Of a DNA stretch of 61,960 bases, positions 31,837 through 37,317 are shown piece by piece; within the stretch, counting starts at the first letter, position 1, and every line of letters begins with the position of its first letter. The position numbers and the translations under genes are program-made. The notes under the pieces were generated by a model, which made no database searches, had not been told where the DNA came from, and worked only from the letters and a program-made list of their open reading frames with translations. Origin of the DNA: a virus (Duplodnaviria; Caudoviricetes); IMG/VR virus record IMGVR_UViG_3300020156_000031, positions 1 to 61,960 of that record, one strand, 5' to 3'.

Positions 31837-32070
31837 CTACCCCTCCCCCTTCAATGCGGCTTCGGCCATGTCAGCCATGCGGTTGACAGTGGCGTTGGCT
31901 TTGGGAGTGCGCTGGGAGGCGATCTTGCGGAGGGTGAAGCCCCGGCTCATCGCCTTCGTGGACCACTCCATTCCTGTCTCTTGGCAGATGATCGCGTAGT
32001 ACTCCCATTCGTCGCGCGCTCTGAACACTTCCGGCGCGAGCCACTTGGCGATCTTGATACGGAGGGTCAT
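31837..32070 (-). CDS. Hypothetical protein
   Basis: Start MTLRIK, GGAGG SD, coupled. Confidence 0.5.
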   Translation of the reverse strand: MTLRIKIAKWLAPEVFRARDEWEYYAIICQETGMEWSTKAMSRGFTLRKIASQRTPKANATVNRMADMAEAALKGEG

Positions 32071-32531
32071 TGGGCTGCCTCCGAAGAATTCGCGGCTTCG
32101 AAGATATCGGGCCGCAACTGCTGGCGAGGAATGCCGGTGAAAGCCTCGACCCGGAGTAGATGCTCGACCGGCACCTTGCGCCATTGGCTGATGTTCGACC
32201 GCGTGACGTTCAAGTGCTTCGCAAGCCGAACCTGCGAACCCCTGTTGGCCTTGATCCAGTTTGTCAGGATGTCGTTTCCACCAACGCTGAGCGTTGCCGC
32301 CCACGCCGCGACTTCACCTTCATCCCTGAACCATTCCGAGCCATTGACGCGATACGGGGAGAACTGGATGTGAATTTCCCGCTCCCGGCGATCCTCAGCA
32401 TCGAAGAACCCGACCAGCTCGACCGGGTGGGGGTTGAACGTCTTGGCGATCCTCAGTCTGGATTCCGGGTTCCGGGACCAGCCGATCTTGAGGAAGCCTT
32501 CACTTCTGAGGACGTAGATGAAACCCATCAT
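32067..32531 (-). CDS. GIY-YIG (T5orf172-like) domain fused to Cro/YdaS-like HTH
   Basis: GFIY..KIGWS.NP..R..EREIH..EWF followed by SQ..LA..L.VTRSNISQW..LRPD. Confidence 0.75.
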   Translation of the reverse strand: MMGFIYVLRSEGFLKIGWSRNPESRLRIAKTFNPHPVELVGFFDAEDRREREIHIQFSPYRVNGSEWFRDEGEVAAWAATLSVGGNDILTNWIKANRGSQVRLAKHLNVTRSNISQWRKVPVEHLLRVEAFTGIPRQQLRPDIFEAANSSEAAQ

Positions 32532-32731
32532 CCCGCTGCCTCCGTTTTGGAAGCAAGCATGGTTTCCATGTCCACGCCGGTATGCTCCCGGATCGCGACC
32601 GCCACCTTCAGGGACGGCGTTGCATATCCGAGGCGGATGCGGGCGATCATGGAACGGTCACAGCCGACCAACTCCGCGAGCTGGGCGTCCTTCATTCCGG
32701 TTTCGGTCATGTGCTGCTGAAGTGTTTTCAT
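32528..32731 (-). CDS. cro: Cro-like repressor
   Basis: 67-aa HTH divergent from cI. Confidence 0.7.
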   Translation of the reverse strand: MKTLQQHMTETGMKDAQLAELVGCDRSMIARIRLGYATPSLKVAVAIREHTGVDMETMLASKTEAAG

Positions 32732-32737
32732 GCCGCC

Positions 32738-32800
32738 ATGGTGCATCACATGAACGTTCATGTCAAGCACAATTCGACGCAACATGTTCATGTCATGGAA
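32738..32800. promoter_or_regulatory. OR-like operators and PR promoter
   Basis: 15-bp imperfect palindromes at 32741, 32756 and 32786 (GTTCAT-N3-ATGAAC consensus); minus-strand TTGACA at 32761-32766. Confidence 0.75.
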
Positions 32801-32835
32801 TGGCCCTTAGAACGGGAATGTGGGACTTCTTCGCA

Positions 32836-33162
32836 ATGCCCCCGATTAAGAAACCAAAGCCGCAACTGGGCCGCACGTTCCTTCGAGAATGGAGGGAGTA
32901 CCGCGATCTCTCACAGGAAACCGCCGCCGATCTGCTCGGCATTTCGCGCCCGAATCTGTCAAAGATCGAGAACGGGGCTGTGCCCTATTCGCAGCCAATC
33001 CTCGAGGCTGCGGCCGTCGCCTATAGGTGCGACGTGACCGATCTGCTCCGCTACGATCCGTTTAAGGTCGGAGAGGCTGTTGACCTCCTGGCCCTGCTGA
33101 ATGCCAAGACAGATGCCCAGAGGGAGCAAGCAATCCGCATTCTCAAAGCTGCACTGAGTTAA
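32836..33162 (+). CDS. cI: CI-like XRE repressor lacking a peptidase domain
   Basis: LREWRE..LSQE.AA..LG.SR..LSKIENG HTH; ~108 aa; divergent from cro. Confidence 0.75.
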   Translation: MPPIKKPKPQLGRTFLREWREYRDLSQETAADLLGISRPNLSKIENGAVPYSQPILEAAAVAYRCDVTDLLRYDPFKVGEAVDLLALLNAKTDAQREQAIRILKAALS

Positions 33163-33362
33163 ACGGCTCGCTTCAGCAGCACGAAATCATGTTCGATTGA
33201 AAATGCCCATGTGCCGCCATCGAGCGCGGCAAGGGCGTGAGCCAGGCTCCCGACCAGTTCTTCCACGCGCGGCACCTCTTCCTGCGCTGGAACAGCCCCG
33301 AATACCTTCGTCGACAAAAACACTGCCGGTATGCCTGCAATCAAATTCCTACGCGTGGGCAC
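33159..33362 (-). CDS. Small protein with twin-arginine-like N-terminus
   Basis: MPTRRNLIAG; GGAGG SD upstream; convergent with cI. Confidence 0.55.
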   Translation of the reverse strand: MPTRRNLIAGIPAVFLSTKVFGAVPAQEEVPRVEELVGSLAHALAALDGGTWAFSIEHDFVLLKRAV

Positions 33363-33533
33363 AATGGGTATCCTCCAGACGGAATGTAAGTTGGGTGCCT
33401 GATCAAATATTAACGGTCTCGTGCAGTATCGTACAATTCATAAGATCTTGGGATATGTGGATAACTTATTGGTGAGGTTGGCAAAATCAATTTTCACAAA
33501 GTTGTCATAGGGATTTTCTTCTTGGCAGGGTTA

Positions 33534-34152
33534 ACGATTGAGGATCGTGCGGCGGAAAATCGCGGCTTCTTTGTGACGTGATGTGCCGTTTCAGTCAGGT
33601 GAACGACGAGGCAATATCCTGTCATTAAGATGGTCCTGTGAAGACCACCAGTCCATGCCGCGATCCTCCGCGACCAAGCATCCATGAAGTCGAATTGAAC
33701 CAGCAGGTAGTTTTGTTTTCCCGGACCCTACCGGGCTCTGTTGGCATCCTCCCGCCGGTCAAGCGGTGCAAACGGTACGCGCCAATTCTACAATCTTGCC
33801 CGAAGGCGGTCTTCACATGGTGTCCTGCTGTTATCCGGCAGCTTGCAAAGCTGTGTTCCCGGCGGGCCATCAACCCCGTCTGACTTCGCTCGGTGAGCCT
33901 GGCGCCGATACCGCGTCCGTTTCATGTACCGGATGATCGGCGGGCGCGGATGAAACCTCTAAAGACCGCTGCCTTTGCGCTTCCGAACGCTTCATCTTGG
34001 CGGGAACCTCCGAGCAGACCCAAGATATCGCGTTTTTCTGCGCCTGCAGGCAGCCATTCCGATTGCAAAACCTTACCAGTTTTGATAGACACTCGGTCGA
34101 AGCAATAGCGCCTGCAGCGCCGGTCGGATCATCCCGCCGGCGCTTTTCTTTT
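33534..34152 (+). ncRNA. Candidate large structured non-coding RNA
   Basis: Many nested long-range helices and hairpins, G-U pairs on the plus strand, no convincing ORF, ends in a terminator; 5' end is approximate. Confidence 0.55.
34116..34152 (+). terminator. Intrinsic terminator
   Basis: AGCGCCGG...CCGGCGCT followed by TTTCTTTT. Confidence 0.8.
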
Positions 34153-34181
34153 GGCACAAGATTTTTCCCCCGTCAAAAAAA

Positions 34182-34236
34182 TTTCATCACATGAACATTA
34201 GATGTTGACAGACTTGTTCATCACATGCACTATTCT
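34182..34236 (+). promoter_or_regulatory. OL-like operators and PL promoter
   Basis: TTTCATCACATGAAC (34182) and GTTCATCACATGCAC (34216) flank TTGACA (34205). Confidence 0.78.
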
Positions 34237-34296
34237 CCCCATCAGCAGCACCGGCCTCGGTCGAAGTTCTCGCGCTGACAAACGGGGATCAGAGAC

Positions 34297-34692
34297 ATGG
34301 ATACCTTGGAACACCACCTCGATTTCGAGGAACTGAACATCAACGTCTGCGGCAAGTCCGCGCCGGGCATGATGCTCTACGGCACGGCAACGCTCACTGG
34401 CGACGAGGACGGCTTTTCGGTGGTCGCGGTTCGCCTGGATGGAGGCGCGTGGCTCCGGGCTCGTGGCAACGGTGCCGGCGGTTTTCCCGCTGCCTTCGAG
34501 GATGAGCTTTTCAAGCGCATCGCTGCCGTGATCGAAAACCCCAAGACGGCGATTGGCAAGTATGCCGAGGGCGAATGGGCCGATGTCGTCGAGGCCGCGA
34601 AGGCCGGCGATCCCGACCGCGCCTATGACGAGCGCCGCGATCATGCCGCCACCGAACGGGCCGATCGGGAACGGGAGGCGGAACATGCGTGA
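34297..34692 (+). CDS. Hypothetical early protein
   Basis: First ORF after PL. Confidence 0.6.
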   Translation: MDTLEHHLDFEELNINVCGKSAPGMMLYGTATLTGDEDGFSVVAVRLDGGAWLRARGNGAGGFPAAFEDELFKRIAAVIENPKTAIGKYAEGEWADVVEAAKAGDPDRAYDERRDHAATERADREREAEHA

Positions 34693-34864
34693 CGCCAAGA
34701 AACCCTTCACCATCACCGTTCGGCTGACCGAAGAACAGCGCGCCCGCTTGGACCGCGCCGCCAAATTGGGTCCGTACAGCATCACCCTCACCGACATCAT
34801 CAATCGAGGCATCGAACTCGCCGCCGCCGAGCTTGAGCGGATGGCAGAAAGGGCAGGTGCATAA
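34685..34864 (+). CDS. Ribbon-helix-helix (CopG-like) protein
   Basis: ITVRLTEEQRARLD..A pattern; GGAGG SD. Confidence 0.6.
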   Translation: MRDAKKPFTITVRLTEEQRARLDRAAKLGPYSITLTDIINRGIELAAAELERMAERAGA

Positions 34865-35115
34865 TGCTTAGGCGCCCCCTCTCCACCTATGCCGGCGGCT
34901 CGCCACGGGCCATTTCAGACGGCTCCAGTGCCCAGGTGTTTTATTTCGTCGATGACGCAACCCACGACATCGCAACGCTGGCGGCAGCCCTCCAGGAATG
35001 CGCCGATTACTTCGAGAACCGCGCGGACGCCGACTGCGATCAGGACGGATTCATTCCGAACAAGGAAATGCAGATGCTTGACGTGTGCAAGCGCGCGCTC
35101 GGGGAGGCGAAATGA
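34864..35115 (+). CDS. Hypothetical protein
   Basis: TAATG coupling. Confidence 0.55.
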   Translation: MLRRPLSTYAGGSPRAISDGSSAQVFYFVDDATHDIATLAAALQECADYFENRADADCDQDGFIPNKEMQMLDVCKRALGEAK

Positions 35116-35356: not shown

Positions 35357-36424
35357 ATGAACGCCATCAATGCAGGCATCGTCGCGCAAGTATCGATCAT
35401 CGAGCCGTGGACATGGTATTTCGGCGCGCTGAAGACCCCGGAAGCCATCGGCTCTGACCGTCTCCCCATCCATCCCGGCGAATACCAGCTCGGCTATTAT
35501 CGCGTCCGCCGCAAGGACGGCAACTGGGAGCCTGTCGGCATCTACCCGGACGACGAGCAGGACGGCAAGGTCGTGGCCTTCCGCGGCGATCGTCAGATTG
35601 ACGACATCCCCGAACTGTTCGTGTGGGCTTGCAGGAACCCCGTTACCCACGACGCCTACGTGAAGGCTCTCAACGGCGGCGGATGGGATGACGAGCCGGC
35701 GACCGCGCCGGGCATCGGCGACAATTCCGGCGAGGCTGACCCGTTCGACGCGCTGCGCATCGAATACCTGGGCGAGAAGGAACTGGCCGAGGAATACATG
35801 CGCCAGCCGGTTACGACCCAGGCGCAGGCCGACAAGGCGGCGATCTGGGCAAAGCGGCTCACCGCCATCAAGACCAAGGCCGAAGCGCTCCACAAGGTGG
35901 AGAAGCAGCCTCACCTCGACGCCGGCCGCGCCGTGGATGAGAAGTGGCGGGAACTCAAGACCGAGCCGGACGATCTCGCCAAGAAGCTCAAGGCGCACAT
36001 CAAGCCGTTCTTGCAGGAGCAAATCAGGCAGGAGGAGGAGCGCCAGCGGAAGGCCAGGGAGGAAGCCGAGGCCGCGCGCCGTGCAGCGCAGGAAGCCGCC
36101 AGGAAGGCCGCTGCGAGCGGCCAGCAGTCGGAGCAGGATCGCGTAGCAGCACAGGCCGAAGCCGAGCGGCAGGCCAACCTTGCCCGCCAGGCAGAGCAGG
36201 AAGCCGAAGCCCGGAAGGTCAATGCCGGCCGCACCGGCGCCCGCGTATCCATGCGTATCGAGAAGGTCGGCGTTGTCACCGACTACGCGAAAGCGGCGGC
36301 GGCTCTCGTCGCGATGAAGCACAAGGACATCATCGAGATCATCGATAAGCTGGCGCAGCGCGCGGCTAAGGCCGGAATGCCATTCGACGGCATGGAAATT
36401 CGGGAAGAGGAGCGCGTGGTCTGA
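35357..36424 (+). CDS. Coiled-coil recombination-module protein (Gp157/Gam-like position)
   Basis: EKQPHLDAGRAVD motif and long coiled coil; upstream of RecT. Confidence 0.6.
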   Translation: MNAINAGIVAQVSIIEPWTWYFGALKTPEAIGSDRLPIHPGEYQLGYYRVRRKDGNWEPVGIYPDDEQDGKVVAFRGDRQIDDIPELFVWACRNPVTHDAYVKALNGGGWDDEPATAPGIGDNSGEADPFDALRIEYLGEKELAEEYMRQPVTTQAQADKAAIWAKRLTAIKTKAEALHKVEKQPHLDAGRAVDEKWRELKTEPDDLAKKLKAHIKPFLQEQIRQEEERQRKAREEAEAARRAAQEAARKAAASGQQSEQDRVAAQAEAERQANLARQAEQEAEARKVNAGRTGARVSMRIEKVGVVTDYAKAAAALVAMKHKDIIEIIDKLAQRAAKAGMPFDGMEIREEERVV

Positions 36425-37317
36425 TGAACGCTATCACCAAGACCGAGGCCGCCCGTCCGTCCCTGATCGACTCCATGGCGGCGCAACGGAACATGGATCC
36501 GGCCCAATTCGCGAAGACCGTCCGCGCCACGGTCATGCCCGCGCAGCACACGAACGAGCAGTTCGCCGCACTGATGCTGGTGGCGGACAAGTACGACCTG
36601 GACCCGATCCTGAAGGAAATCTATGCCTTCCCGGCGAAGGGCGGCGGCATCGTGCCGATTGTCTCGATCGACGGATGGGTAAACCTGATCAACTCTCACC
36701 CGCAATATGACGGGGTGGAGTTCGATTTCGAGCATGGCGACGACGGCGTTCTCGTCTCCTGCACCTGCCGCATGTACCGCAAGGACCGGAGCCGCCCGGT
36801 GACCGTCACCGAATACCTCTCCGAGTGCATTCGGAACACCGAACCCTGGAAGATGAAGCACCGGATGCTTCGTCACAAGACGATGATCCAGGCGGCGCGC
36901 TATGCGTTCGGCTTCGCCGGCATCTATGACGAGGACGAGGGCGCCAAGATCGCCGAGATGCGCGAGATCAATCCGGTAGATCGCAAGCCGCCGGCGCCTC
37001 CGAAGCCGCCCGAAGCCGAGCACAAGCCCGCGCCGGCAACCATCGATCACGTCGCCGACAGCATCGACGCCGACTCGGAGGACGAGCCGACCGCCGAAGA
37101 CATGGCGGAAGATCAGGCCGAGGTCATCGACGATACGACGTTCTTCGAACAACTCGAGGAAGCGCTCGCCGTCGCCGGCGATCTGGAAACGCTGGAGGAA
37201 GTCTGGACCGAGTTCGATCCCATGGCACGTTTCGACGGACAGAAGGGCGGCGAGATCAACCAGGGCATCGCGATGGCGATCCGCAAGCGCGCTGAAAAGC
37301 GCATCGGCGGTGCATGA
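36424..37317 (+). CDS. recT: Single-strand annealing recombinase (RecT/Bet)
   Basis: LDP..KEIYAFP, VSIDGW, PW....RML.HK..IQAARYAFG motifs. Confidence 0.9.
   Translation: MNAITKTEAARPSLIDSMAAQRNMDPAQFAKTVRATVMPAQHTNEQFAALMLVADKYDLDPILKEIYAFPAKGGGIVPIVSIDGWVNLINSHPQYDGVEFDFEHGDDGVLVSCTCRMYRKDRSRPVTVTEYLSECIRNTEPWKMKHRMLRHKTMIQAARYAFGFAGIYDEDEGAKIAEMREINPVDRKPPAPPKPPEAEHKPAPATIDHVADSIDADSEDEPTAEDMAEDQAEVIDDTTFFEQLEEALAVAGDLETLEEVWTEFDPMARFDGQKGGEINQGIAMAIRKRAEKRIGGA

Follow-up and report, generated by a model that had tools for sequence, protein, structure and literature searches.

A family of large, pseudoknotted RNA elements in the immunity region of temperate phages, almost all from Rhizobiales

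Large ornate RNAs are rare in bacteria and their phages, and OLE, GOLLD, ROOL and raiA have each opened new structural or biological questions. Among the RNAs of phage switches, lambda OOP and P22 sar are convergent antisense RNAs of about 70 nucleotides (nt) that form simple stem-loops and pair to a coding region. The P1/P7 c4, P4 CI and N15 RNAs are small, processed immunity RNAs, the loops of which pair with sites of the same transcript upstream of an antirepressor gene. Riboswitch-type leaders and the put RNA of phage HK022 (~70 nt) control transcription just after the promoter. Here we describe an element at positions 33620-34143 of a 61,960-nt stretch of viral DNA (Duplodnaviria; Caudoviricetes; IMG/VR record IMGVR_UViG_3300020156_000031), which is called the window in the following. 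The element belongs to an undescribed family of large RNA elements (~520 nt) with multiple helices and pseudoknots, carried by temperate phages and prophages, almost all from Rhizobiales (Hyphomicrobiales). Its place is always the same, with the repressor (immunity) operon on one side and the early-left promoter with its operators on the other.

Compared with the immunity RNAs, the new element shares with OOP and sar a short predicted transcription unit that faces the lysogeny-side operon with overlapping transcripts, but at ~520 nt it is seven times larger, it is pseudoknotted and carries an invariant loop, and the overlap would be confined to untranslated sequence unless transcription reads through. 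As with c4, P4 CI and N15, a phage-encoded RNA is placed in immunity circuitry; however, neither such complementary sites nor an antirepressor layout were found for it. With riboswitches and put it would share a conserved, sensor-like domain at the 5' end and a variable 3' part with mutually exclusive pairings around a terminal hairpin, but it is far larger, no regulated gene follows on the same strand, and a U-run is present in 6/17 relatives only.

In PMC12286853, ROOL and GOLLD are described as large phage RNAs that form RNA-only cages, and GOLLD as having one universal and one less conserved half. The new element resembles both in its length of hundreds of nt, its many covarying helices, its pseudoknots and its phage-borne nature, with protein partner and function unknown in all three, and like GOLLD it combines a universal with a variable half. 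It differs from them in matching no Rfam 15 model in sequence or structure, in having hosts from Rhizobiales instead of Firmicutes or other groups, and in sitting beside operators in a genetic-switch region and not near tRNA genes. The small RNA svsR of a lambdoid Escherichia coli prophage, a single hairpin of 77 nt at the 3' end of cI that is reported to limit other phages (PMC12803456), is likewise made by a prophage and tied to the end of a repressor gene; in contrast, it shares the strand of cI and is located within this gene or at its end, belongs to enterobacteria and has no homology to the new element. The family extends the large ornate RNAs to another host group and has at least two pseudoknots as well as a hairpin that is almost invariant. 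Unlike OLE, GOLLD, ROOL and raiA, it has a defined place in a well-understood circuit, and its function is therefore directly testable by ordinary phage genetics (lysogenisation frequency, spontaneous and induced release, immunity).

An undescribed RNA family

Based on covariance-model searches, 74 loci are strong full-length members of the family: the window, Brucella phage BiPBO1, 54 IMG/VR contigs and 18 species genomes. The model R1, comprising 171 positions, gives full-length matches of at least 107 bits in 57/62 loci, most of which are in its seed, and 17 further matches of at least 72 bits among 43 other sources; the latter 17 include the window itself and 12 loci outside the seed (10 IMG/VR contigs and 2 genome loci). 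In the window R1 matches 33890-34057 with 164.7 bits. The sole BLAST match among isolated phages is BiPBO1, with 69.6% identity over 33920-34152; it is located between the cI-like gp68...gp63 genes and the early genes, and it covers the annotated gp62 of 44 amino acids (aa). A 31-nt stretch is identical in the window and BiPBO1 and is found exactly in 15 IMG/VR contigs. Its 16-nt core occurs in 50 IMG/VR contigs, 3 of them by chance, and the 19-nt loop described below in 34 stretches of species genomes. Nine pairs of loci are identical over a 306-nt aligned stretch (seven pair a genome locus with a viral contig, two pair viral contigs), and the nine loci concerned entered the alignments once only. 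A sample of 151 genomes of the order, with 18 candidates scored per genome, has the element in one, the centre genome itself, which is a weak estimate of its frequency. The plasmid collection gave no match to the element.

By record title, 16 of the 18 strong genome loci belong to Rhizobiales, with carriers in Phyllobacterium, Rhizobium, Allorhizobium, Neorhizobium, Sinorhizobium, Mesorhizobium, Chelativorans, Aquamicrobium, Hoeflea, Aureimonas, Brucella endophytica and metagenome-assembled genomes (MAGs) of Rhizobiaceae. Two strong full-length members come from MAGs labelled otherwise, namely L053 (contig of 1,995 bp, Gemmatimonadota; 125 bits) and L076 (Chitinophagaceae; 137 bits), and could reflect mis-binning or real spread.

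Beyond the strong members, L057, L059, L065, L067, L069, L077, L083, L098 and L100 are candidate distant relatives with 35-45 bits over the full length, and L034, L035, L038, L058, L070 and L079 give partial R1 matches. The contexts of 14 distant loci are unlike those of the main family, and the distant group together with L042 was left out of the 51-sequence tests described below. L059 (Microvirga aerophila) and L077 (Lichenifustis flavocetrariae), weak distant matches of 40-45 bits, both lie beside a shared open reading frame (ORF) of ~210 aa (MGG(T/S)-SG...GGRPT...), which at L059 is joined by a serine-recombinase-like ORF; this setting differs from the prophage-switch context of the main family. 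Rows excluded from the family were 16-mer matches by chance (L023, L029, L039), loop-only matches (L060, L061, L068, L072, L074, L081) and pattern matches by chance (L087, L088, L090-L093, L095). The locus L072 of Rhizobiales bacterium AFS002495 (~1291-1311) has the loop and the 3' half of the signature hairpin only, with an R1 match of 21 nt, and looks like a truncated or rearranged copy. L088, L090-L093 and L095, IMG/VR contigs of one metagenome, share a recurrent AT-rich locus with CGGGAACCGACAAGCAGAC in which the hairpin stem is absent, and were rejected as members as none of the six has a covariance-model match.

The family corresponds to no known RNA in Rfam 15. The whole window gives 0 matches at gathering score, and the region 32500-35000 at E <=10 gives 3 chance-level matches only, the best with 20 bits compared to gathering scores of 50-191. 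Ten relatives searched at E <=1 yielded two unrelated weak matches only. The families covered in this way include GOLLD, ROOL, OLE, transfer-messenger RNA (tmRNA), RNase P, signal recognition particle RNA, introns, known ribozymes and riboswitches, c4 and sar, none of which reached or approached its gathering score; in the window, neither a tRNA nor a tmRNA was detected by ARAGORN. An earlier reading made from the letters alone (the sequence-only reading) had proposed a large non-coding RNA at 33534-34152 that it did not recognise as tmRNA, RNase P, signal recognition particle RNA or a group I/II intron, and in this it was right: a large, pseudoknotted non-coding element is real.

The same reading had seen no credible ORF in the span, and the relatives agree with this. 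The ~520 nt hold no conserved ORF; in a 246-nt core no frame is open in more than 10/65 relatives, 163/176 pairwise indels are not multiples of 3, and the stretch equivalent to the ORF 33638-33883 is open in at most 4/17 relatives in any frame. A coding reading was rejected: none of the frames is kept, and the overlapping ORF 'families' are spread over several frames of the two strands. In BiPBO1, gp62 (L002 4021-4155, YP_009304090.1; 44-aa hypothetical protein) lies wholly within the conserved element and is probably not a gene, since its frame is not kept in relatives. The annotation can be corrected accordingly, as gp62 and comparable short ORFs within the element are very unlikely to be genes.

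Topic searches of the literature found no description of the RNA, and the loop sequence was found in no paper of the literature searched. In the BiPBO1 paper (PMC4729917), a term search found no mention of an RNA at this place. The IMG/VR screen of Fremin et al. 2023 (PMC10690425) yielded 10,006 candidate structured RNAs; a term search of its main text found nothing on repressors, prophages or Alphaproteobacteria, and the element could be listed in the supplementary tables. Among the RNA sequencing runs on record, none of those listed contains the element sequence.

Covariation and architecture of the fold

Base pairs of the element are kept by compensating changes beyond the controls, demonstrating a conserved, structured non-coding RNA. 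Covariation supports about 20 helices, including two or three pseudoknots. Each helix was tested by permutation, comparing the duplex energy of a sequence's own arms with that of arms from different sequences; the values for the sequence cluster of the window are given in Table 1. Family-wide permutation tests with 67 and 51 sequences agree for the universal half. A hand-made structure of 121 pairs with pseudoknots was further compared with shuffles of the 17-sequence alignment. It pairs 80.1% of the cells (70.4% in shuffles) with 73 pairs changed on both sides (45.2 +/- 3.4) and a covariation score of 0.279 (0.133), and 0/500 shuffles are as high for any of the three; slid controls pair 36-42%. 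The structure predicted in the minus sense has 56 pairs changed on both sides, compared to 29.6 in shuffles (0/500), with slid controls at 35-45%.

All members share the conserved half 33885-34143, which is nearer the early promoter. The remaining half divides into sequence clusters, with 16-17 members of the window type and 17 of the BiPBO1 type. Both clusters have the same layout, comprising a closing long-range helix, an inner long-range helix and a hairpin with a loop that pairs to the far end. The variable half does not follow the repressor type.

The most conserved part is the signature hairpin, whose 19-nt loop reads CGGGAACCTCCGAGCAGAC in plus letters and GUCUGCUCGGAGGUUCCCG in a minus-sense RNA. 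Its stem covaries widely (TCTTGG/CCAAGA, TCTCG/CGAGA, GCTGG/CCAGC, GACCGG/CCGGTC), and natural variants of the loop are found at positions 6, 8, 9 and 13 only. The loop appears to form a short internal stem of 3 bp capped by six bases, with a strictly conserved bulge of seven bases at its flank, and a role in docking or tertiary contacts is more likely for the hairpin than one as antisense seed. The loop of H1 is also conserved (AGCCTGG in plus letters), and a pseudoknot between it and 33909-15 is possible (weak, p 0.018); H3 is uninformative because it is invariant. In the variable half, a GC hairpin near 33798 was seen by eye only. The loop of the hairpin 33839-42/33850-53 keeps a self-complementary UGCA in the window cluster and not in the BiPBO1-type cluster, which could allow loop-loop dimerisation.

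Two sets of helices are mutually exclusive, with both members of each covarying. Residues 34044-56 pair either with 34104-17 (cognate minus non-cognate energy -6.0 kcal/mol) or with 33962-73 (-2.0 kcal/mol), both with p 0.0002. At the other end the local hairpin Ha (p 0.0002) excludes the long-range helices 33629-33/33867-71 and 33637-46/33808-17; in the minus sense the long-range pairings of the same bases, PK1 and PK2, have p 0.003 and 0.0002, and Hb has p 0.0002. A predicted pairing of GGUCUUU (33961-67) with 33630-37 gave p 0.86 and is uninformative because both sides are invariant. An antiterminator formed by 33935-47 with the 3' strand of the GC hairpin was rejected, as covariation is absent (p 0.15).

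The pairings proposed from the letters alone survive this comparison in part. Of five long-range pairs, TGTGAAGACC 33637/GGTCTTCACA 33808 and CAGCAGG 33701/CCTGCTG 33824 are fully supported (both p 0.0005), and 33629/33864 holds for a 5-bp core, GATGG 33629/CCATC 33867 (p 0.0025), with compensating changes in two relatives (L018 and L036). The pair AGTCAGG 33593/TCTGACT 33879 fails, since its 5' arm is outside the conserved span and 33882-33888 pairs with 33685-33691 instead, and at CCCGCCGG 33751/CCGGCGGG 33859 (p 0.04) local hairpins covary instead. Among the local hairpins, those at ~33659, 33720 and 33839 are kept, and those at 33534 and 33605 fall into the unconserved 33534-33619; the first 85 nt of the proposed span are not part of the element. 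The long bulged stem (GCTGCC/GGCAGC, GAACGC/GCGTTT, ATCTTGG/CCAAGAT) and CAAAAC/GTTTTG are supported by permutation, while GACCG 33964/CGGTC 34094, which had been taken to close a 3' domain, is not (p 0.46 and 0.84).

Table 1. Features of the immunity region and of the element in window coordinates. Helix values are from the permutation test; p 0.0005 for single helices and the range p 0.0025-0.025 refer to the window cluster (n=17). The minus strand of the element's features is the probable assignment.
Feature	Position	Strand	Details
Cro-like helix-turn-helix (HTH) gene	32528-32791	-	87 aa; divergent from repressor-like gene
Repressor-like HTH gene	32839-33162	+	107 aa; Pfam HTH_31 2.1e-13, HTH_3 2.7e-07
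Orphan ORF	33159-33362	-	67 aa; only homologue is itself
Outer part of the first proposed span	33534-33619		conserved in no relative; not part of the element
Conserved span of structured RNA	33620-34143	- (probable)	~524 nt; from alignments of relatives
More variable 3' domain (minus sense)	~33885 down to ~33620	-
3'-terminal region (minus sense)	33629-33674	-	Hb 33657-62/33669-74 (p 0.0005); Ha 33629-35/33643-49
Long-range helices excluded by Ha	33629-33871	-	33629-33/33867-71 (p 0.0025-0.025); 33637-46/33808-17 (p 0.0005)
Domain closed by long-range helix	33685-33888	-	33685-91/33882-88 (p 0.0005); analogous architecture in BiPBO1-type cluster
Helices inside this domain	33701-33878	-	33701-07/33824-30 (p 0.0005); hairpin 33720-35 (33720-24/33731-35, p 0.0005); hairpin 33741-85 (33741-45/33781-85, p 0.0005) containing 33752-66 (33752-55/33763-66, p 0.0005); hairpin 33835-62 (33839-42/33850-53, p 0.0005; 33835-38/33859-62, p 0.0025-0.025); hairpin 33863-78 (33863-66/33875-78, p 0.0025-0.025)
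Universal 5' domain (minus sense)	34143 down to ~33885	-
H1, H2, H3	33890-33956	-	H1 33890-95/33903-08 and H2 33919-25/33950-56 (both p 0.0005); H3 33929-32/33937-40
Long bulged stem below signature hairpin	33976-34043	-	P4b 33976-80/34039-43, P4c 33985-90/34030-35; p 0.0005-0.011 (lower stem among the helices at p 0.0025-0.025)
Signature hairpin	33994-34026	-	covarying stem ATCTTGG/CCAAGAT (33994-34000/34020-26, p 0.0005); near-invariant 19-nt loop 34001-34019
Helix enclosing P5	34044-34117	-	34044-34054/34108-34117 (p 0.0005); P5 is 34059-62/34093-96 (lower P5 at p 0.0025-0.025) plus 34066-71/34079-84
P4a, alternative pairing	34044-34056 with 33962-33973	-	excludes the 34108-34117 helix
GC hairpin and TTTTCTTTT	34117-34152	both readings	hairpin 34117-34143 (p 0.0005 in the window cluster), TTTTCTTTT 34144-34152; stem covaries, p 0.0002-0.0005
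Promoter-like element	34148-34176	-	TTGACG 34171-34176, 17-nt spacer, CAAAAG 34148-34153
Early-promoter/operator region	34183-34229	+	TTCATCACATG at 34183 and 34217; TTGACA -35 at 34207-34212

Setting in the immunity region and strand of the RNA

The span 33534-34152 lies within a lambda-like immunity region (Table 1), and the slot between cI and PL that the sequence-only reading had assigned to it is confirmed for the window as well as for relatives including BiPBO1. The first early ORF on the plus strand begins at 34297, and the early genes include RecT (36424-37317). Copies related to TTCATCACATG and operator-like are also found at 32742 and 32787-32799, between the two HTH genes. The repeats flanking the early promoter and those at 32742-32799 are palindrome-like, of the TTCAT-N3-ATGAA type. 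Both control regions therefore seem to share operators, and the repeats are probably the operators of the repressor.

In the relatives, a repressor-type gene (S24/LexA-like or a small HTH protein) lies upstream on the plus strand in at least 28/67 loci, many of which are too short to tell. For window-cluster loci with upstream sequence, a plus-strand ORF ends within ~30 nt of the far end of the element in 9/16; four of these nine have Pfam support (an HTH, two S24 and an ImmA/IrrE-type M78 peptidase) and five do not. The peptidase gene (L048 6964-7497, minus strand; 3.5e-22) ends at the element boundary, which suggests an ImmR/ImmA-type immunity module in this phage. No protein family consistently adjacent to the element and no toxin partner was seen among the relatives.

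The RNA is probably a minus-strand transcript. RNAalifold performs better on the reverse-complemented alignments in 4/4 cases. The minus-sense alignment A6 folds with -113.41 kcal/mol, 92 pairs and 54 compensated, compared to -75.94, 69 and 32 for the plus-sense A3, and the minus and plus values are -24.8 and -13.2 for A4, -53.2 and -38.0 for A5, and -52.3 and -36.6 for A2. When each sense is scored on its own predicted structure, the covariation score is 0.417 for minus and 0.311 for plus, and further pair types amount to 124 in the minus sense (90.3 in shuffles, 0/500) and 55 in the plus sense (51.8, 64/500). At pairs predicted in both senses, A-C and G-U in plus letters occur 15/6, 15/6, 7/0 and 1/1 times; 6 G-U versus 22 A-C at shared pairs give a binomial p of 0.004. 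Helix energies in the universal domain are better in the minus sense in 42/51 sequences (Wilcoxon p 2e-7). The internal positions of hairpin Hb (33657-74) read C-G, U-G and U-A in the minus sense, while the plus sense would need C-A mismatches in 6/17 sequences. Unpaired letters are purine-rich in the minus sense (A 0.30 vs U 0.23), and the minimum free energy of the conserved span is lower on the minus strand (-205.4 vs -198.2).

The flanking signals are consistent with this assignment. The promoter-like element of the minus strand, a candidate promoter of the RNA judged by its letters, stands back to back with the early promoter, with an operator copy just upstream; the early promoter's own -35 is further on and points in the opposite direction. 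Across 49 relatives, a TTGACA-like hexamer is found at one fixed distance from the A-run before the GC hairpin, with a mean match of 3.57/6 versus ~1.5 at other offsets. The match is at least 5/6 in 17/49 relatives, and in 5 more it is so one base further. On the plus strand, a scan for a sigma-70 promoter of the conserved span gave 33410-33437 only, ~180 nt upstream of any conservation, and was rejected; AT-rich hexamers just before the conserved span show no consistent -35. The GC hairpin can be read in two ways, as the intrinsic terminator of the repressor operon on the plus strand, or as the 5' stem-loop of the RNA, following an A-run, on the minus strand. A simple terminator scan does not list 34117-34152.

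Several statements of the sequence-only reading change with the strand. The strong plus-strand terminator exists as the GC hairpin followed by TTTTCTTTT, yet as the 3' end of the RNA it is less likely than as the 5' hairpin of a minus-strand RNA. The G-U pairs said to work on the plus strand are no more frequent than A-C on the hand-made structure, and comparative folding favours minus. More generally, the structure had been placed on the terminator-bearing strand, whereas consensus folding, compensated pairs and the G-U/A-C asymmetry favour the other one, with single-sequence z-scores disagreeing. The 'Tat-like' ORF (33159-33362), described as divergent from the RNA, would be co-directional with it, and the repressor-like gene convergent.

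Possible functions

The sequence-only reading had put forward an RNA-based exclusion, antitoxin or regulatory module, or a ribozyme. We tentatively favour a role in regulating the lysis-lysogeny switch, exerted by transcription of the RNA itself against the immunity operon, a reading of the sequence patterns chosen because it explains the constant position and orientation, the operator-side promoter and the competing pairings at the far end. The minus-strand RNA would start at the GC hairpin (34143-34117), from a promoter back to back with the early promoter and beside the shared operators, and would run convergent to the repressor operon. Its folded 5' domain may bind a conserved factor or ligand at the invariant hairpin, and binding would decide between arrest at the 3' hairpin and continued transcription for polymerases that come from the operator-linked promoter. 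The last hairpin (33629-33649) would compete with the long-range pairings, and read-through would yield antisense across the immunity operon towards the cro-side genes. The same GC hairpin with its T-run would end the repressor operon on the plus strand. Where the last immunity gene abuts the element, this hairpin is the first plus-strand terminator after the immunity genes, so that the 3' end of the immunity mRNA would be the antisense of the RNA, and the RNA may also pair with the tail of the immunity mRNA. If the RNA indeed gates transcription against the repressor operon, it would represent a new kind of input to the lysis-lysogeny decision. For the explanation as a whole, from family to mechanism, we estimate a probability of roughly one half.

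A number of observations speak against this explanation. The controls by permutation and shuffling remove the effect of relatedness only partly, and the start, end and strand of the RNA are themselves predictions. On the question of strand, helix energies of the variable domain are mixed, with plus better in 5/17 in total (p 0.21). G-U and A-C cells of the hand-made structure are equal (138 vs 137, also 192 vs 180) and thus uninformative, and some helix ends are G-U in the plus sense only (C-G 8/U-G 8 at the first pair 33701/33830; G-U 8 at the end of 33685/33888). Single-sequence folding, which the sequence-only reading had named as a check, favours the plus strand, with z-scores of -5.88 (plus) and -3.17 (minus) for the span 33534-34152 (20 shuffles each), and of -3.15 (0/100 as good) and -1.54 (7/100) for the conserved span. 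The textbook hairpin with a U-run is on the plus strand, and the minus-strand -10 (CAAAAG) is poor, without the final T, and was missed by a simple promoter scan. With regard to the mechanism, only 6/17 relatives carry 4 or more U in the 8 nt that follow Ha, and the number of U is not significantly linked to the strength of the competing pairing (rho -0.35, p 0.17). In BiPBO1 the last immunity gene is followed by a separate plus-strand terminator ahead of the element, and the idea of an antisense tail is therefore inapplicable there.

A role in trans is nearly as likely as the switch mechanism in cis, if unlikely taken by itself. The same minus-strand RNA would act as a stable folded particle, made of RNA only or with a conserved host or phage protein, with the invariant hairpin as docking site; the benefit to the prophage could be host modulation or exclusion of other phages, and the operator-side position would only time its expression. 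The large conserved fold with a near-invariant hairpin across phages that differ in repressors and early genes, its own promoter-like element, hairpins at both ends and the lack of a conserved neighbouring gene to regulate are all in line with such a particle. Precedents are the cages of ROOL and GOLLD (PMC12286853) and the RNA svsR (PMC12803456). However, the constant position and orientation relative to the immunity operon and the competing 3' pairings would be unexplained, and no partner protein was identified. Nor was a complementary target found: the complement of the invariant loop with up to 3 mismatches is absent from the window, where the best complementarity is a 10-pair run inside a 901-aa ORF, away from the start site. 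In 5 host genomes no loop complement recurs beyond the element itself, and matches with 3 mismatches are near the reversed-pattern control.

Two specific trans functions were rejected. Rhizobial anti-Shine-Dalgarno small RNAs carry CCUCC loops. A corresponding reading of the loop was dropped, since the natural variants AACAUCC, AACUUCC, AACGUCC, AACCGCC and AACCACC change both C and U, and the motif is absent altogether if the RNA is minus-sense. For a type III toxin-antitoxin RNA (ToxI-like), no repeat array was noticed in the sequence, to which no tandem-repeat tool was applied, and no adjacent protein family is conserved.

With lower probability, the RNA is a plus-strand one that ends at 34117-34152 and is made in lysogens, whether as the structured 3' end of the transcript of the repressor operon or from a gene of its own. 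The strong conserved hairpin with its U-run, the repressor on the same strand with its gene abutting the element in several relatives, the better single-sequence z-score and the G-U pairs confined to the plus sense would all fit. We consider this unlikely, as comparative folding is clearly worse in four alignments, many members would require A-C mismatches inside helices, a convincing plus-strand promoter is missing ahead of the conserved span, and the TTGACA at fixed distance on the other strand would be unexplained. Less probable again is the use of both strands, in which the plus-strand tail of the immunity mRNA and the minus-strand RNA linked to the operators would form a structured sense/antisense pair that makes loop-loop contacts, is cut as a duplex and tunes the repressor level like lambda OOP versus cII. 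The convergent layout, with an overlap of up to ~520 nt where the last immunity gene abuts the element, agrees with this, as do the about equal overall numbers of G-U and A-C, which are expected if both strands fold; against it, antisense pairing needs neither pseudoknots nor an invariant loop, and BiPBO1 has an earlier plus-strand terminator.

The switch mechanism in its most ambitious form, a giant riboswitch-like or polymerase-binding sensor RNA gating an 'inward' promoter of the prophage switch, is doubtful. Capture of a ligand or factor by the 5' domain would lead to replacement of the 3' hairpin by the long-range pairings, and transcription would then continue antisense through the repressor operon into the cro-side lytic genes. 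If true, this would provide an RNA-controlled route to induction or the lytic choice that is independent of repressor cleavage. With regard to a riboswitch or attenuator leader, the competing pairings both covary, and the U-run has at least 4 U in 6/17 relatives only. The only same-strand ORF downstream in the window is the orphan, and the next feature is a convergent gene in 9/16 relatives. Finally, that there is no RNA at all, and the element acts as DNA (single-stranded and folded, or as a cruciform, in replication, packaging or recombination) or is a decayed protein gene, is very improbable: the equal G-U and A-C on one hand-made structure and the short ORFs overlapping the element on both strands, with gp62 of BiPBO1 annotated inside, are outweighed by ~20 helices with pseudoknots and pairs up to 240 nt apart that are unlike known DNA sites, by strand-asymmetric comparative folding, and by an unconserved frame with indels not in threes and overlapping ORF 'families' in several frames on both strands.

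On the far side of the repressor gene, a 154-aa ORF on the minus strand (32067-32531), just after the Cro-like gene, combines a T5orf172/MUG113 (GIY-YIG-like) domain with a YdaS/P22-Cro-like DNA-binding domain.

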